Shown one piece after another: positions 37,885-57,208 of a stretch of 64,000 bases of DNA; position 1 is the stretch's first letter; every line of letters starts with the position of its first letter. The DNA comes from Escherichia phage T4. The notes below the pieces were generated by a model. The model ran no database searches, had not been told where the DNA came from, and worked only from the letters and a program-made list of their open reading frames with translations. The translations under genes and the position numbers were made by a program. Location: the sequence record NC_000866.4; one strand, given 5' to 3'.

Positions 37885-38679
37885 CTACGAATAGGCCCAA
37901 ACATATCCATAAGCAATTTTGCTTTTTCCAGATATGCACTTTTTAATATTAGACATGCATCCTTTAACGGATACAGCTGCGTCTTTAATTCTAGGAAATA
38001 CTCGTAATAATTTTCCAGTAGTATCATATTGAAATACTGGCACATTTCTTTTCTGAGTTATCCCACGTTTAGATTTAGACATTTTTTGTTTAGTTGCATT
38101 AGACATCCTAGAGGGCTTTCCTATGTTATCAGAATAATAATATTTCCATTGAAATCCTCCAGCGGTTTTCCTTTTACCATCTACACATTGTTTAATTGAA
38201 GTTGAACAGCTATATGACATATCTTCTGCAGCATCTGTAATACATCTATATTTGCGAATAAAATTTCCATTTAAATCATATTGATAAATTGGTTTTCCAG
38301 CATTTCGTCTAGCGTTAGACATGTATTTTTTATTATCATCATCTTTCCAGAACTCTTTCATGCTTTCCGATATTGAAGAAGATACAGCTGTTTTAATCCA
38401 TCCATACATTTTATTATTTAGTCTTGTTCCGTCAGAACTATAACACATCATACGAATAGCTAAAGCCAATTTAGGAAGTCTATAAATTTTAAATAATAAT
38501 AAATGCGCGGTAAAATGTTCTTCTGGTGTCAAAAGAACTAAATTAGTTTTATCATCTGTACCACCCATACATCTAGGAATTATATGATGTGTTTCAGTAT
38601 AGTATGTCAAAAGACTTTTATCATTGCCTCTGTTTAGTCCTTTTTCGATCAGTAAATTATATATGTTTAAATAATTCAT
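37885..38679 (-). CDS. mobB: HNH homing endonuclease MobB
   Basis: 264-aa ORF with HNH motif (HHIIPRCMGGTDDKTNLVLLTPEEH). Confidence 0.8.
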   Translation of the reverse strand: MNYLNIYNLLIEKGLNRGNDKSLLTYYTETHHIIPRCMGGTDDKTNLVLLTPEEHFTAHLLLFKIYRLPKLALAIRMMCYSSDGTRLNNKMYGWIKTAVSSSISESMKEFWKDDDNKKYMSNARRNAGKPIYQYDLNGNFIRKYRCITDAAEDMSYSCSTSIKQCVDGKRKTAGGFQWKYYYSDNIGKPSRMSNATKQKMSKSKRGITQKRNVPVFQYDTTGKLLRVFPRIKDAAVSVKGCMSNIKKCISGKSKIAYGYVWAYS

Positions 38680-42328: not shown

Positions 42329-42445
42329 TTACATTTACCTTTAATTGATTAACCAAGCATTGATAAGCACTAAACTATACTGCGAATAAAATTCTGGACC
42401 AAAATGAAAATCATATCATTTATAGTATCCATAATGTAATTCAAT

Positions 42446-42916
42446 TTAATCATGTTTCCACACCCCATCGGTATTTGACCAAAGTCGCTGATTATCTGAT
42501 CCTCGCCACAGCTTTTTGGTCGGAAGATTTTTCTCATACTTCCCATCAATAATAACATCAACATATTTAAGCATTTCTAGTTGTTTAATATCTTCAAACT
42601 TATATCCTGTCCACAACCAGATATCTTTCTCCGGAAATCTTGCTTTAACCCAAGAAACTAAATTTGAAATCTCTTCTCGGTTCTGTGGATAAAGTGGGTC
42701 ACCGCCGGTTAAGGTAAGGCCTTGGATATACGATTTGCTTAAATGGGACGCAAGTTCTTTAACGGTATTCATAGTGAATAACTGTCCGTTACGAGCATTC
42801 CAAGTACTACGATTATAACAACCTTCGCATTTATGCAAACATCCAGTGACGAAGAGAACGACCCTACATCCAGGGCCGTTAACGAAATCGCATGGATAAA
42901 TTCTATCATAATTCAT
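42446..42916 (-). CDS. nrdG: anaerobic ribonucleotide reductase activating protein NrdG (radical SAM)
   Basis: ORF MNYDRIYPCDFVNGPGCRVVLFVTGCLHKCEGC... with CxxxCxxC cluster; ATG at 42914-42916 gives 156 aa. Confidence 0.9.
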   Translation of the reverse strand: MNYDRIYPCDFVNGPGCRVVLFVTGCLHKCEGCYNRSTWNARNGQLFTMNTVKELASHLSKSYIQGLTLTGGDPLYPQNREEISNLVSWVKARFPEKDIWLWTGYKFEDIKQLEMLKYVDVIIDGKYEKNLPTKKLWRGSDNQRLWSNTDGVWKHD

Positions 42917-43538
42917 CTTTATATTTCCAAGTATATCCCTTATGAATAGATTGAATTCCTTTGCAACATTTATAAACAGCAGAATGAAAAAATCCTGCAT
43001 TTCTTATTTCAGTTGCTCCAGTTAGTTCTATTGTATTTCCGTCTGGTGAATAGCCAATAACCGTTTTGGTGTTAAAGCGATTTCTAGAACTATTTTTGAT
43101 ATGCTCTTTATGATTAGTAGACAAAGTTCTTCCTGTTAGCCCATCAGATATCCTTTTTCCAAAATCATCAGGAAGAGTTACTTTAGACCTAGCTATGCTC
43201 ATTAGCTTCTTAGTTTTATCGCTTCTTTTTGCGCCACGCTGATTTTCAAATTTCTTAGCTTTTGCATACGCGTATTGTGAAGAAGTAACTTTTCTATGCT
43301 TACTATTACTCATTATCCAATATGCATCATACATCTTTCCACCATATATTTTAGCCAATAAATGGTGAGCAGTATAGTGGGCCTTATAAGTTAAAAATAC
43401 TAAGTTGTCTAAATCATCTGAACCACCCATACTTCTTGGAATTATATGATGAAGTTCATACCCGGCTTTAGTTTGACGGGGCTTAGATGGGTGTTCAGCA
43501 GAATTAACTAGATTTGAATAGATTCTGTCATAATTCAT
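42906..43538 (-). CDS. mobC: HNH homing endonuclease MobC
   Basis: 210-aa ORF with HNH motif (HHIIPRSMGGSDDLDNLVFLTYKAH); paralogous to mobB and mobD. Confidence 0.8.
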   Translation of the reverse strand: MNYDRIYSNLVNSAEHPSKPRQTKAGYELHHIIPRSMGGSDDLDNLVFLTYKAHYTAHHLLAKIYGGKMYDAYWIMSNSKHRKVTSSQYAYAKAKKFENQRGAKRSDKTKKLMSIARSKVTLPDDFGKRISDGLTGRTLSTNHKEHIKNSSRNRFNTKTVIGYSPDGNTIELTGATEIRNAGFFHSAVYKCCKGIQSIHKGYTWKYKDEL

Positions 43539-44809
43539 TGGTGCTTAACCCTATGCATGATTTCTTTATTTTTACCGAGATTAAATCCGCGTTCGTTCGG
43601 ATTTCCCAAATAACCACATGTTCTTCTTATGGTATTCATCTTTTTAGGATCAGTTTCTCCACAAATAGAACAAACAAATCCGTTTTCAGTAGGAGTCATT
43701 TCATGGGTACTTCCACATGTAAAACATTTATCTACTGGCATATTAACACCAAAATAATCTAAATGCTGTGCAGCATAATCCCACACGGCCTCAAGACCTT
43801 TTAAGTTATTTTTCATATCAGGAAGTTCAACATAAGAAATGTGACCACCTGTCGCAATGAAATGATATGGCGCTTCACGAGAAATCTTTTCAAACGGAGT
43901 AATATTTTCTTCTACTGAAACATGGAAACTGTTAGTGTACCAGCCTTTATCGGTAACATCTTTTACGCTTCCATATTTTTCTGTATCGAGTTTACAGAAG
44001 CGATAACACAGGTTTTCAGCAGGAGTCGAATATAAACTAAAAGCAAATCCGGTTCTTTCAGTCCACTGTTTAAGATGAGCATTCATTTTAGTTAAAATTT
44101 CTCGTCCAATATCACGACCGACAAGAATATTCAATTCGTGAATACCAATGTATCCTAAAGACACTGAACTTCTACCGTTTTTAAATAACTCAATTATGTC
44201 GTCATCAGGTTTAAGACGAACCCCGAATGCACCTTCTTGGTAAAGAATAGGAGCAACAGTAGCTTTAACTCCTTTTAAGGAACTAATTCTACACATCAAA
44301 GCTTCAAAACATAAATCCATTCGTTCATTAAATAGCTCAACAAATTTCTGTTCATTGAACTGTGTTCCAATATAAGAATCTAACGCGATGCGAGGAAGAT
44401 TCAGTGTTACAACACCAAGATTATTGCGTCCATCAAGAATTTCATTGCCAGTCGAATCTTTCCATACGCTCAAGAAACTACGGCAACCCATCGGAGAAAC
44501 AGGAACAGATGAACCAGTGATAGCTTTATTGTTCTTAGCTGAAATAATATCAGGATACATCCTTTTGCTTGCGCACTCTAGAGCAAGCTGTTTAATATCA
44601 TAGTTCGGATCGTCTTTATAAAGATTAACACCTTCTTCAACGAACATAACAAGCTTAGGGAAAATAGGAGTTATCCCATCACGACCAAGACCTTTAATAC
44701 GATTTTTCAGAATTGCTTTCTGAATCATTCGTTCAGTCCAGTCAGTTCCCGTACCAAATGTAATTGTTACAAAAGGAGTCTGTCCGTTTGAACTGAATAA
44801 CGTGTTCAC
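43535..44809 (-). CDS. nrdD: anaerobic ribonucleotide reductase NrdD, exon 2 (glycyl-radical C-terminus)
   Basis: 424-aa ORF ending ...RTCGYLGNPNERGFNLGKNKEIMHRVKHQ; ORF-track start is GTG, the true exon boundary lies upstream within 44810-44851. Confidence 0.9.
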   Translation of the reverse strand: MNTLFSSNGQTPFVTITFGTGTDWTERMIQKAILKNRIKGLGRDGITPIFPKLVMFVEEGVNLYKDDPNYDIKQLALECASKRMYPDIISAKNNKAITGSSVPVSPMGCRSFLSVWKDSTGNEILDGRNNLGVVTLNLPRIALDSYIGTQFNEQKFVELFNERMDLCFEALMCRISSLKGVKATVAPILYQEGAFGVRLKPDDDIIELFKNGRSSVSLGYIGIHELNILVGRDIGREILTKMNAHLKQWTERTGFAFSLYSTPAENLCYRFCKLDTEKYGSVKDVTDKGWYTNSFHVSVEENITPFEKISREAPYHFIATGGHISYVELPDMKNNLKGLEAVWDYAAQHLDYFGVNMPVDKCFTCGSTHEMTPTENGFVCSICGETDPKKMNTIRRTCGYLGNPNERGFNLGKNKEIMHRVKHQ

Positions 44810-56445: not shown

Positions 56446-57208
56446 TATTAGACCTTTCATAATCTTCATTAAATTGTACAATCAATCGATGATAATTAGA
56501 TTTTGGATATCCTAATTTACTTATATAAGTTCCGAATGACCCACGTTTAGGTCTATTTAATTTAATCCATAACTTATAAAGTAAGTCATAGTCTTGCCAA
56601 TGTTTACCAGTTCTTTGTCTAATTTTAGATGAATTTGATTGTTTCTTTTTAGCTTCAAAATTATTCAAAGATTTTTTGACTGCAGCAGAGTGTTTTTCTT
56701 TAACTCCCGGTCGTTTAAAAGCAGCTTTCACCCCTTTAGATATTTTTTCTTTAACTTCCGGTTTGTTTTGTGCTTCTAACTGGGATTCTGAAATTTTAGC
56801 CCTTATTTCAGGAAGACTTAATGTTATCGAACGTTTTTCTCTGTATTCATTAGACTTCCACATTTCTTTCATTGTATTAGAATGTATTTTTGAAAATTTT
56901 TCTCTAACTAACTGATATCCTCTTGAAGTTAATTTGAGATTTCTTCCTAAAGAATCTTCTCCAAAATTATAAAATGACCACCATGCATAAATTAATCCAG
57001 GCGAATTGTAATGAATTTTAGCTAAAAGCCAATGGGCTATAAAATGCTCTCTAGCTGTTAATAAAACTAGATTATCAGAATCATCATTACCACCAATACA
57101 AGATGGAATAATATGATGCTTTTCCGTATAAAAATTTAATTTAGATTTATCTAATTTTCTGAGTTTTCCTTTCTTAATTAAATTATTATATACTTTAGTA
57201 TAATTCAT
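56429..57208 (-). CDS. mobD: HNH homing endonuclease MobD
   Basis: 259-aa ORF with HNH motif (HHIIPSCIGGNDDSDNLVLLTAREH). Confidence 0.8.
   Translation of the reverse strand: MNYTKVYNNLIKKGKLRKLDKSKLNFYTEKHHIIPSCIGGNDDSDNLVLLTAREHFIAHWLLAKIHYNSPGLIYAWWSFYNFGEDSLGRNLKLTSRGYQLVREKFSKIHSNTMKEMWKSNEYREKRSITLSLPEIRAKISESQLEAQNKPEVKEKISKGVKAAFKRPGVKEKHSAAVKKSLNNFEAKKKQSNSSKIRQRTGKHWQDYDLLYKLWIKLNRPKRGSFGTYISKLGYPKSNYHRLIVQFNEDYERSNNENCS

Follow-up and report, generated by a model that had tools for sequence, protein, structure and literature searches.

A duplicated nrdG start as the probable left homing junction of mobC in Escherichia phage T4

Introduction

In the group I introns of organelles, homing-endonuclease ORFs are fused in frame to the upstream exon. 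In Aeromonas phage Aeh1, the insertion of mobE reportedly splits nrdA, and the reductase is said to stay functional through new start and stop signals at the junctions. Between nrdD and nrdG of some T-even phages, SegH, a GIY-YIG endonuclease, is said to replace mobC. Within T4 itself, mobE is a free-standing HNH homing endonuclease gene located between nrdA and nrdB (PMC2790892; PMC2988022), while the MobA/gene 60 bypass cassette of the topoisomerase combines a Mob HNH gene with adaptor sequences that keep the interrupted gene working (bioRxiv 10.1101/2022.08.31.505936). The T4 gene mobC has likewise been described as a cassette that has no promoter and for which no ribosome-binding site is well placed, and the activity and target of its product are entered as 'ND' and 'unknown', respectively (PMC2988022, Table 1).

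Here, we analyse the junction of mobC with nrdD and nrdG in a stretch of 64,000 nucleotides of the T4 genome (NC_000866.4), hereafter called the window. A first-pass annotation of the window had proposed that mobC and nrdG share their first codons because of recombination or gene conversion at the insertion junction, rather than through family conservation alone. We compared the T4 locus with related phages that carry mobC, another endonuclease gene or no insert at this position.

Results

Organization of the nrdD–mobC–nrdG junction

On the minus strand, the genes follow each other in the order nrdD exon 2, mobC and nrdG. The 3' part of nrdD corresponds in the ORF list to 43535..44809; the I-TevII ORF lies upstream, inside the nrdD intron, and is followed by endonuclease VII. 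The gene mobC (42906..43538, minus strand; 210 aa) is a free-standing HNH homing-endonuclease gene, as judged from its Pfam match (PF01844 at residues 28–50, with 27.6 bits for a cutoff of 21.4) and from its presence or absence among phages. It is followed by nrdG (42446..42916, minus strand), with an ATG at 42916. Both boundaries are overlaps. The nrdD stop codon TGA (43537..43535, minus strand) overlaps the ATG of mobC (caATGA), and the mobC stop codon TGA spans nrdG codons 3–4, 8 nt inside nrdG, the two genes overlapping by 11 nt. This last position had already been noticed in the first pass and is borne out by the sequence. A promoter and terminator scan of positions 42400–43900 returned nothing above shuffled expectation.

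In several database records, the start of nrdG or of the endonuclease gene at the nrdG junction is annotated wrongly, or the endonuclease is named 'NrdG'. For annotators, such wrong starts and names are a practical concern.

The repeated start and the Mob family N-terminus

Codons 1–7 of mobC (43518..43538, minus strand; ATGAATTATGACAGAATCTAT) and codons 1–7 of nrdG (42896..42916, minus strand; ATGAATTATGATAGAATTTAT) both encode MNYDRIY. They are identical at 19 of 21 nt and differ at two third codon positions only, both synonymously, in agreement with the initial description of the repeat. Towards the 5' side, no similarity extends beyond the ATG, and towards the 3' side it stops at about codon 7 (2 of the next 3 nt still match). 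In a repeat search, this pair is the top-ranking one of the region, with 21/24 matches over 24 nt and a spacing of 622. With up to three mismatches allowed, the 21-mer occurs at two sites only in the 64 kb window, for 0.07 expected from shuffles. Across the 9,180 ORF-start pairs of the window, the best match is 17/21; mobB and mobD, which are true paralogs, match at 16/21 at their starts (MNYLNIY at 38679 and MNYTKVY at 57208, as earlier stated). A random-sequence null is nevertheless too lenient for this start match, because both protein families constrain their N-termini.

To characterize this constraint, a word-indexed protein search was insufficient (12 relatives only) and the N-terminal statistics needed a full HMMER scan of representative proteins, which yielded 13,277 MobC relatives at E<=1e-3. 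The statistics are those of the 118 top representatives that start in register with MobC. Their start reads M, then N (75%) or D, Y (96%), mostly Q/K/E, K (41%) or R (34%), I (64%) and Y (97%), followed by [D/N]xLI. MobC, with MNYDRIYSNLV, aligns to this family start MNYx[K/R]IY[D/N]xLI from residue 1 and without any indel. Its R5, I6 and Y7 are typical of the family, D4 is rare (2/118), and F at position 3 is found in 0/118 (tabulated over Y/F/H/W starts only) and in none of the out-of-register starts either. An unrelated family member, P0064, starts with MNYDRIYKALID and thereby also with MNYDRIY, matching the mobC start at 17/21 nt; it is located on a metagenomic T4-like contig between gp5-like and gp6 baseplate genes, without nrdG nearby. 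The exact DRI match, which the first-pass annotation had used as its main argument by comparison with mobB and mobD, was therefore given too much weight.

The start of nrdG is ancestral to NrdG. In E. coli NrdG begins with MNYHQYY, and the phage alleles are MNYDR[I/F]Y, MNFDRIY and MNYIRIY. Mob and NrdG are thus two unrelated protein families that happen to have almost the same start. The repeat within T4 is weak evidence, since six of its seven residues are expected from the Mob family consensus. Taken by itself, it would represent a coincidence of roughly 1 in 100 to 1 in 400 under the family constraints, a hint that falls short of proof.

Empty sites

In most related phages, the corresponding segment spans 1033 bp for a 1655-bp query, i.e. 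exactly 622 bp less, which is the distance from ATG to ATG in T4. The empty-site phages T2, wV7, T2H, ime09 and VR20 carry a single 21-mer, in which the nrdD end CA is followed by ATGAATTATGATAGA[A/T]TTTAT and the remainder of nrdG. T2, wV7, T2H and ime09 read CA and then ATGAATTATGATAGATTTTAT (20/21 relative to the nrdG copy of T4), and VR20 reads ATGAATTATGATAGAATTTAT (21/21). At these sites, the nrdG start has the same ATGA overlap with nrdD that mobC has in T4, and the left copy of T4 occupies exactly the position of the empty-site nrdG start.

The comparison with mobC-less phages had been suggested in the first pass, with the expectation that an identical 21-mer there would reduce the match to simple shared ancestry. 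The 21-mer is indeed present, once, and in VR20 it is identical, but the expectation was mis-specified. An empty site with the same 21 nt means that the nrdG copy is ancestral and that the extra copy is the one of mobC. It fixes only the direction of copying, and shows no shared ancestry of two unrelated proteins. The converse possibility, that the nrdG start was copied from mobC, is ruled out by the 21-mer already carried by empty sites.

Distribution of mobC in Tequatrovirus and Jiaodavirus

We identified mobC in 30 GenBank phage records among ~830 with this junction. The census of mobC, and that of the second endonuclease gene described below (HEG2), is limited to GenBank phage records, since exact-pattern scans of IMG/VR for the mobC- and HEG2-specific sequence just past the shared segment gave no matches. 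All 30 records agree in mobC at 99.3% identity or more over the internal 601 nt of the gene (99.3–100% across Tequatrovirus and Jiaodavirus); three of them are Klebsiella Jiaodavirus phages (Wolf, Boboto and Shark). The resident nrdG alleles of these two genera differ by ~10–20% in the regions compared.

Over all 633 nt, mobC of T4 differs from that of Wolf and Boboto only at nt 8 and 9, where codon 3 is changed from TAT to TTC. The latter is the codon of the local Jiaodavirus nrdG (MNF), whose resident form starts with ATGAATTTCGACAGAATCTAC (MNFDRIY; phages Merci and 5N). The mobC start of these phages can be written ATGAATT(AT/TC)GACAGAATCTAT, with the T4 and the Klebsiella-phage ending of codon 3 in parentheses. 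Shark shares both changes and has four others elsewhere in mobC. In Jiaodavirus, nrdG is preceded by a small DUF7415 ORF and not by nrdD, and similarity to the Escherichia phages starts at the nrdG ATG. As the upstream genes are unrelated, the 21 nt are the sole left-hand homology between the two genera.

On the other side of mobC, nrdG of Wolf and Boboto is identical to that of T4 (MNY...) for ~113 nt and continues with the local allele. The two 21-nt copies differ at the same two sites in each Tequatrovirus carrier read (T4, HP3 and SHFML-11) and at four sites in Wolf and Boboto. The left copy follows the recipient and the right copy goes with the cassette, which is the signature of a crossover within the shared segment.

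Mosaic structure of nrdG in T4

The nrdG gene of T4 is composed of three tracts. Nucleotides 1–75 (42842..42916, minus strand) are of a type associated with the cassette, and the first 95 nt of the gene are 100% identical in mobC carriers only, the closest empty sites reaching 91.6%. Over nt 1–75, T4 shows 8 differences from VR20, 11 from T2 and 17 from Klebsiella phage 5N. The source of this tract was not found, with no non-carrier above 91.6% identity. Nucleotides 76–329 (42588..42841, minus strand) are a co-conversion tract derived from a Klebsiella Jiaodavirus-like phage, with 7 differences over 254 nt from 5N versus ~90 from T2. The best non-carrier database matches of this tract are Klebsiella phages, at 92–95%. 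Nucleotides 330–471 (42446..42587, minus strand) are of the resident, T2-like Tequatrovirus type, with a single difference from T2 past nt 297. Overall, T4 is ~97% identical to 5N from nt 76 to ~300 and ~99% identical to T2 in the remainder, and the right-hand crossover falls somewhere within nt ~298–329. The nrdD flank of T4 matches T2 and wV7 at 28–30 of 30 nt per block up to the ATG, so that a co-conversion tract is absent on the nrdD side.

The left copy itself seems to be composite. Its nt 1–9 are of the Tequatrovirus type (codon 3 TAT), and nt 10–20 of mobC (GACAGAATCTA) are those of Jiaodavirus nrdG at the same positions, whereas the downstream nrdG copy of T4 has GATAGAATTTA. We infer that the left copy is a remnant of the nrdG starts of recipients. 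In the simplest history, the cassette would have entered a 5N-like Klebsiella phage, where its start would have been replaced by the nrdG start of that phage. Its later transfer to the T4 lineage would have involved one crossover on the right, at about nrdG nt 300, and one on the left, between codons 3 and 4, the latter leaving TAT (Tequatrovirus) followed by GACAGAATCTA (Jiaodavirus). This order and direction, from the cassette to a 5N-like Klebsiella phage and then to the T4 lineage, are suggested by few genomes. The tracts also show that nrdG of T4 itself originates in part from a Klebsiella phage.

Other endonuclease genes at the same junction

A second endonuclease gene, HEG2, encodes a 279-aa distant HNH relative of MobC (BLASTP 1e-7 over the HNH region). 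It is present in 32 records at the same site, always adjoining nrdG, and starts with 13 codons of the resident nrdG type. In Escherichia phage ZJUN4 this start reads MNYDRFYPCDFVN followed by DKLS, corresponding to 39 nt of T2-type nrdG, and in Klebsiella phages Roth77 and SmallBear it reads MNFDRIYPSDFVN followed by DKLS, corresponding to the local nrdG type. There is no other usable ATG before the HNH motif of HEG2, and a separate, donor-type nrdG start (MNYDRIYPCCFVNGPG) lies downstream. The proteins end alike (GYNWKYINEL in HEG2 and GYTWKYKDEL in MobC), both stop codons being located in nrdG codons 3–4. The 39-nt capture by HEG2 is an independent case; family conservation cannot account for it, and it displays the same mechanism as at mobC.

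A MobC relative with 45% identity is encoded in two Pseudotevenvirus phages, leB and Kiwi, where its gene runs up to the nrdG start and overlaps it by ATGA. This gene has a family-type start (MNYHKIY or MNYQKIY) next to an nrdG starting with MNYIRIY, and an intergenic region lies upstream. This arrangement probably represents the state before start capture. The association of mobC with the 5' end of nrdG is thus old, whereas its left junction forms anew in every genome context.

Phages RB9 and PM107 carry segH at this junction. At its ORF start, ATGCATAGG, segH matches the tail of the ancestral nrdD and not nrdG codons. Along with segH come a recoded 3' end of nrdD and a 'PCC' start of nrdG.

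Discussion

Our observations are best explained if mobC is an HNH homing cassette that inserted at the nrdD/nrdG junction and if its left 21-nt copy is a recipient nrdG start captured at the left homing crossover, a reading to which we give a probability of about 0.84. The mobile unit would consist of mobC from about codon 4–8 onward together with the first tens of nt of the donor nrdG. A break made by MobC in the 5' region of the recipient nrdG could drive the transfer, repair then copying the donor. The right crossover would take place inside nrdG and the left one in the first 21 nt, where the recipient nrdG start would pair with the mobC start. As an outcome, mobC would begin with the codons of the recipient's nrdG start and would be followed by another nrdG start, of the donor type. 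Such a fusion would be tolerated, in frame and in register, because Mob MNYx[K/R]IY almost equals NrdG MNYDR[I/F]Y; with the N-termini matching in register, the chimeric endonuclease retains a conserved N-terminus. In this process, mobC would take over the ATGA coupling of nrdG to nrdD, and nrdG would re-initiate at the end of mobC. The gene arrangement thus hints at translational coupling all along nrdD, mobC and nrdG. The reported lack of a promoter and of a well-placed ribosome-binding site (PMC2988022) is consistent with a dependence of mobC on coupled initiation.

The locus shows several features of homing: an optional gene between conserved host genes (a 622-bp indel, occupied in 30 of ~830 records), a donor-type tract in the flanking host gene (nrdG nt 1–~300 in T4 and nt 1–113 in Wolf and Boboto), and a near-identical endonuclease gene in otherwise diverged genomes, indicative of recent horizontal spread. 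The proposal that the shared start is a recombination footprint, beyond family conservation, holds on comparative evidence that the first pass did not have, namely the covariation of codon 3, HEG2 and the co-conversion tracts; ongoing gene conversion between the two copies finds no support. A point against the homing explanation is that T4 recombination would have to place the left crossover in a short homology of 12–21 nt.

Alternatively, the two starts could have become MNYDRIY by separate ancestry, with no DNA exchanged. The family consensus over the 118 representatives covers most of this heptapeptide, P0064 displays it in full (with 17/21 nt in common with mobC) at a locus devoid of nrdG, and the 21-mer was already present in nrdG of the empty sites. 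Yet such a coincidence leaves unexplained why codon 3 is the sole difference between T4 and Wolf/Boboto and recreates the local nrdG codon, a fact that strongly disfavours it. Nor does it account for the 11-nt identity between mobC nt 10–20 and Jiaodavirus nrdG, which includes the rare D4, or for the 39-nt nrdG start of HEG2 that tracks the resident genus. We thus consider family conservation plus coincidence improbable. Convergence, either through selection on the initiation region or through intragenomic gene conversion homogenizing both starts, might be suspected because each start overlaps the stop codon of the preceding gene (that of nrdD, as ATGA, in the case of mobC; that of mobC, 8 nt inside the gene, in the case of nrdG) and because no ribosome-binding site is well placed for mobC (PMC2988022). 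However, the copies are not homogenized, with two fixed differences in Tequatrovirus and four in Wolf and Boboto; their upstream contexts are unrelated, and the corresponding starts differ in Pseudotevenvirus (MNYHKIY in the mobC-like gene, MNYIRIY in nrdG). This makes either form of the idea very improbable.

The direct repeats that flank the insert, and the exact restoration of the empty site when the insert and one repeat are removed, also recall a transposition-like, cut-and-fill insertion duplicating 21 bp. We nevertheless find this hardly credible, as mobC is accompanied by no transposase and no terminal inverted repeats, and as the left copy is the essential start of the endonuclease itself, in register with the family N-terminus. 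At the same site, HEG2 has 39 nt and another inner boundary. Furthermore, the two copies carry different alleles, one resident and one donor, which fill-in synthesis would not produce, and co-conversion tracts of such length are indicative of homologous repair. A transposon-style target-site duplication would be expected to leave repeats of fixed length, identical at first, at independent mobC insertions in unrelated sites; their absence here counts against it.

If the left copy was captured during homing, as we favour, it is tempting to speculate further that the in-register homeology of 12–21 nt between Mob and NrdG starts serves as a landing pad and forms the whole left arm, that start-codon capture is general, and that MobC is active in nature and targets the conserved 5' end of nrdG. 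Taken jointly, these propositions are tentative and, on balance, we would sooner expect at least one of them to fail. Should they hold, mobC, and HEG2 by a similar 39-nt capture, could hop between genera with unrelated upstream genes, each hop capturing the start codon and the translational coupling of the recipient. Start-codon capture would then be a general entry route of endonuclease genes without promoter and ribosome-binding site into tightly coupled operons.

Indirect evidence that mobC is mobile in nature comes from the anatomy of the junction, from a mobC that is 100% identical in T4 and Klebsiella phages, and from the foreign tracts nested in nrdG. Together, these observations narrow the likely target of MobC to the first ~100 nt of nrdG. 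The junction further illustrates how a gene devoid of promoter and ribosome-binding site may enter a 4-nt stop/start overlap and leave its neighbours intact, by taking the start of the downstream gene and bringing a replacement. Much of the background is already known: mobC itself and its position between nrdD and nrdG, its replacement by segH, co-conversion, the stop/start overlaps of Mob genes and the adaptors of Mob cassettes. In the literature accessible to us, which did not include Sandegren et al. (2005), we found no description of the duplicated nrdG start as a left recombination junction, of the chimeric, lineage-tracking start of mobC, of the 39-nt capture by HEG2 or of a Klebsiella-phage origin for part of T4 nrdG.

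Among described systems, T4 mobE is similar in many respects: it belongs to the same Mob HNH family, is a promoter-less cassette between two ribonucleotide-reductase genes, has an AUG that overlaps the upstream stop codon (UAAUGA), and spreads with co-conversion of its flanks. It differs in that a duplicated start of the downstream gene is not described for it in accessible texts, and in that MobE activity has been demonstrated whereas the entry for MobC is 'ND' (PMC2988022). SegH shares the very junction and is also a free-standing cassette bordered by altered ends of host genes, but it belongs to another enzyme family (GIY-YIG) and its start is not made of nrdG codons. SegH reportedly cleaves DNA with and without the endonuclease gene alike (Sandegren et al. 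2005). The mobE insertion of Aeh1 likewise places a Mob-type endonuclease in a reductase coding sequence with the host gene still functional; there, nrdA is split into two polypeptides, whereas nrdG of T4 is whole, seven of its codons having been duplicated and donated to the endonuclease. Similar to the MobA/gene 60 cassette, whose endonuclease can be swapped for other families in relatives, mobC and its borders form a mobile Mob unit with adaptors, although the adaptor of gene 60 acts by translational bypass and supplies new protein tails, and is not a duplicated start. Finally, the intron ORFs of organelles also borrow translation initiation from a host coding sequence, but they are located within introns that splice themselves, and the enzyme is released from a fusion protein by processing, whereas mobC is free-standing and borrows start codons only. 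Set beside these systems, the T4 junction is instructive yet rather ordinary as a detail of a mobile gene whose kind is already known. It accounts for a minor peculiarity of a well-studied genome by a mechanism that is not new, and its modest interest lies in the structural detail.

Possible capture of start codons at the nrdD/nrdG junction

A SegH-like GIY-YIG endonuclease gene occupies the junction in RB9 (L003) and PM107 (L008; both 800-960, counted within each locus). In both phages the gene starts with ATGCATAGG (MHRYYIIYKITN..), and this 9-mer is the ancestral nrdD tail (ATGCATAGGGTTAAGCA[C/T]CAATGA, encoding MHRVKHQ*). The approximately 60 nt of nrdD located 5' of ATGCATAGG are heavily recoded, with 15-18 of 30 nt identical to the empty-site phage T2. 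This arrangement suggests that SegH captured an nrdD-derived ATG, in a manner analogous to the start segment common to mobC and nrdG.

A mosaic junction is visible in the sequence of Shigella phage SHFML-11 (L012, 800-1520). Its nrdD tail is of the recoded SegH type (..KEMVKRVKHA*, ending ..CATGCATAG). Between this tail and mobC lies a 12-nt piece of T4-type nrdD tail (GGTTAAACACCA), which no longer codes for protein. The nrdG start is similarly composite, its first 12 nt being of T4 type (ATGAATTATGAT) and the sequence thereafter of 'PCC' type (AGAATATACCCGTGCTGC). Competition between the segH and mobC cassettes seems to have produced the SHFML-11 junction, through one crossover at ATGCATAGG and another within the 21-mer.

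A second endonuclease and a polymorphism in nrdG

The nrdD/nrdG junction of 32 records harbours HEG2, a distant HNH endonuclease of 279 aa, exemplified by L005, L006, L014, Yersinia phage PST (H219/H220) and Klebsiella phage UTI-K1 (H241). HEG2 is 95-100% identical among records of Escherichia, Yersinia, Shigella and Salmonella phages, to which the HEG2 of Klebsiella phages is about 87% identical. In Yersinia phage PST the gene is labelled 'mobC'. In UTI-K1, the NrdG activating protein is named twice among the features under the HEG2 match, a labelling that presumably stems from the N-terminus derived from nrdG.

All nrdG genes read 3' of SegH or HEG2 encode PCC (D10C) at codons 8-10, as do those located 3' of the 99.3% mobC variants (SHFML-11 and Shark), whereas T4 and the empty sites have PCD or PSD. 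The loci with PCC are L003, L005, L006, L008, L012, L014 and L016. PCC may be an immunity polymorphism directed against one of the endonucleases that cut at the nrdD/nrdG junction.

Other contexts of the junction and of Mob-family genes

In Jiaodavirus phages, nrdD and nrdG are separated by a small DUF7415 ORF of about 72-79 aa, which Tequatrovirus lacks; it is located at 847-1065 in L007 and has equivalents in L004, L006, L011, L014, L016 and L017. In these phages, its 3' end overlaps the start of nrdG or of the captured endonuclease. In Pseudotevenvirus, a MobC relative (45% identical) lies directly 5' of nrdG and its upstream neighbour is not nrdD (L009, Cronobacter phage leB, and L010, Klebsiella phage Kiwi_ER50; 1189-1842). 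In the leB record, the only annotated start of this gene is an internal Met (1396); nrdG is entered there solely as a misc_feature.

A Mob-family HNH gene starting with MNYDRIYKALID is present in a metagenomic T4-like contig (L015, Logan SRR26886987, 3001-3678), inserted between a gp5-adjacent gene and the baseplate gene gp6. It is a useful negative control, showing that the heptapeptide can arise without nrdG.

Gene starts and overlaps

The junction is itself a cause of annotation inconsistencies in the records of RB9, SHFML-11 and Wolf_ER13. For 'segD' of RB9, the annotated start is an internal Met (955), although the full-length ORF, the same as in PM107, begins at 859. Instead of the MNYDRIY start, nrdG is annotated from a TTG at 1764 in RB9 and from an internal ATG at 1615 in SHFML-11. 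In Wolf_ER13 (L004), an upstream in-frame ATG at 1575 is used; the resulting 184-aa form, whose start is equivalent to window position 43000, overlaps mobC by about 95 nt.

In T4, mobC and nrdG overlap by 11 nt (window 42906-42916). A TAA in frame with mobC lies three codons 5' of its ATG, and therefore no earlier mobC start is possible. According to a review (PMC2988022), mobC overlaps the ORF 5' of it by 24 bp; the T4 sequence contains a 4-nt ATGA overlap between mobC and nrdD (window 43535-43538).
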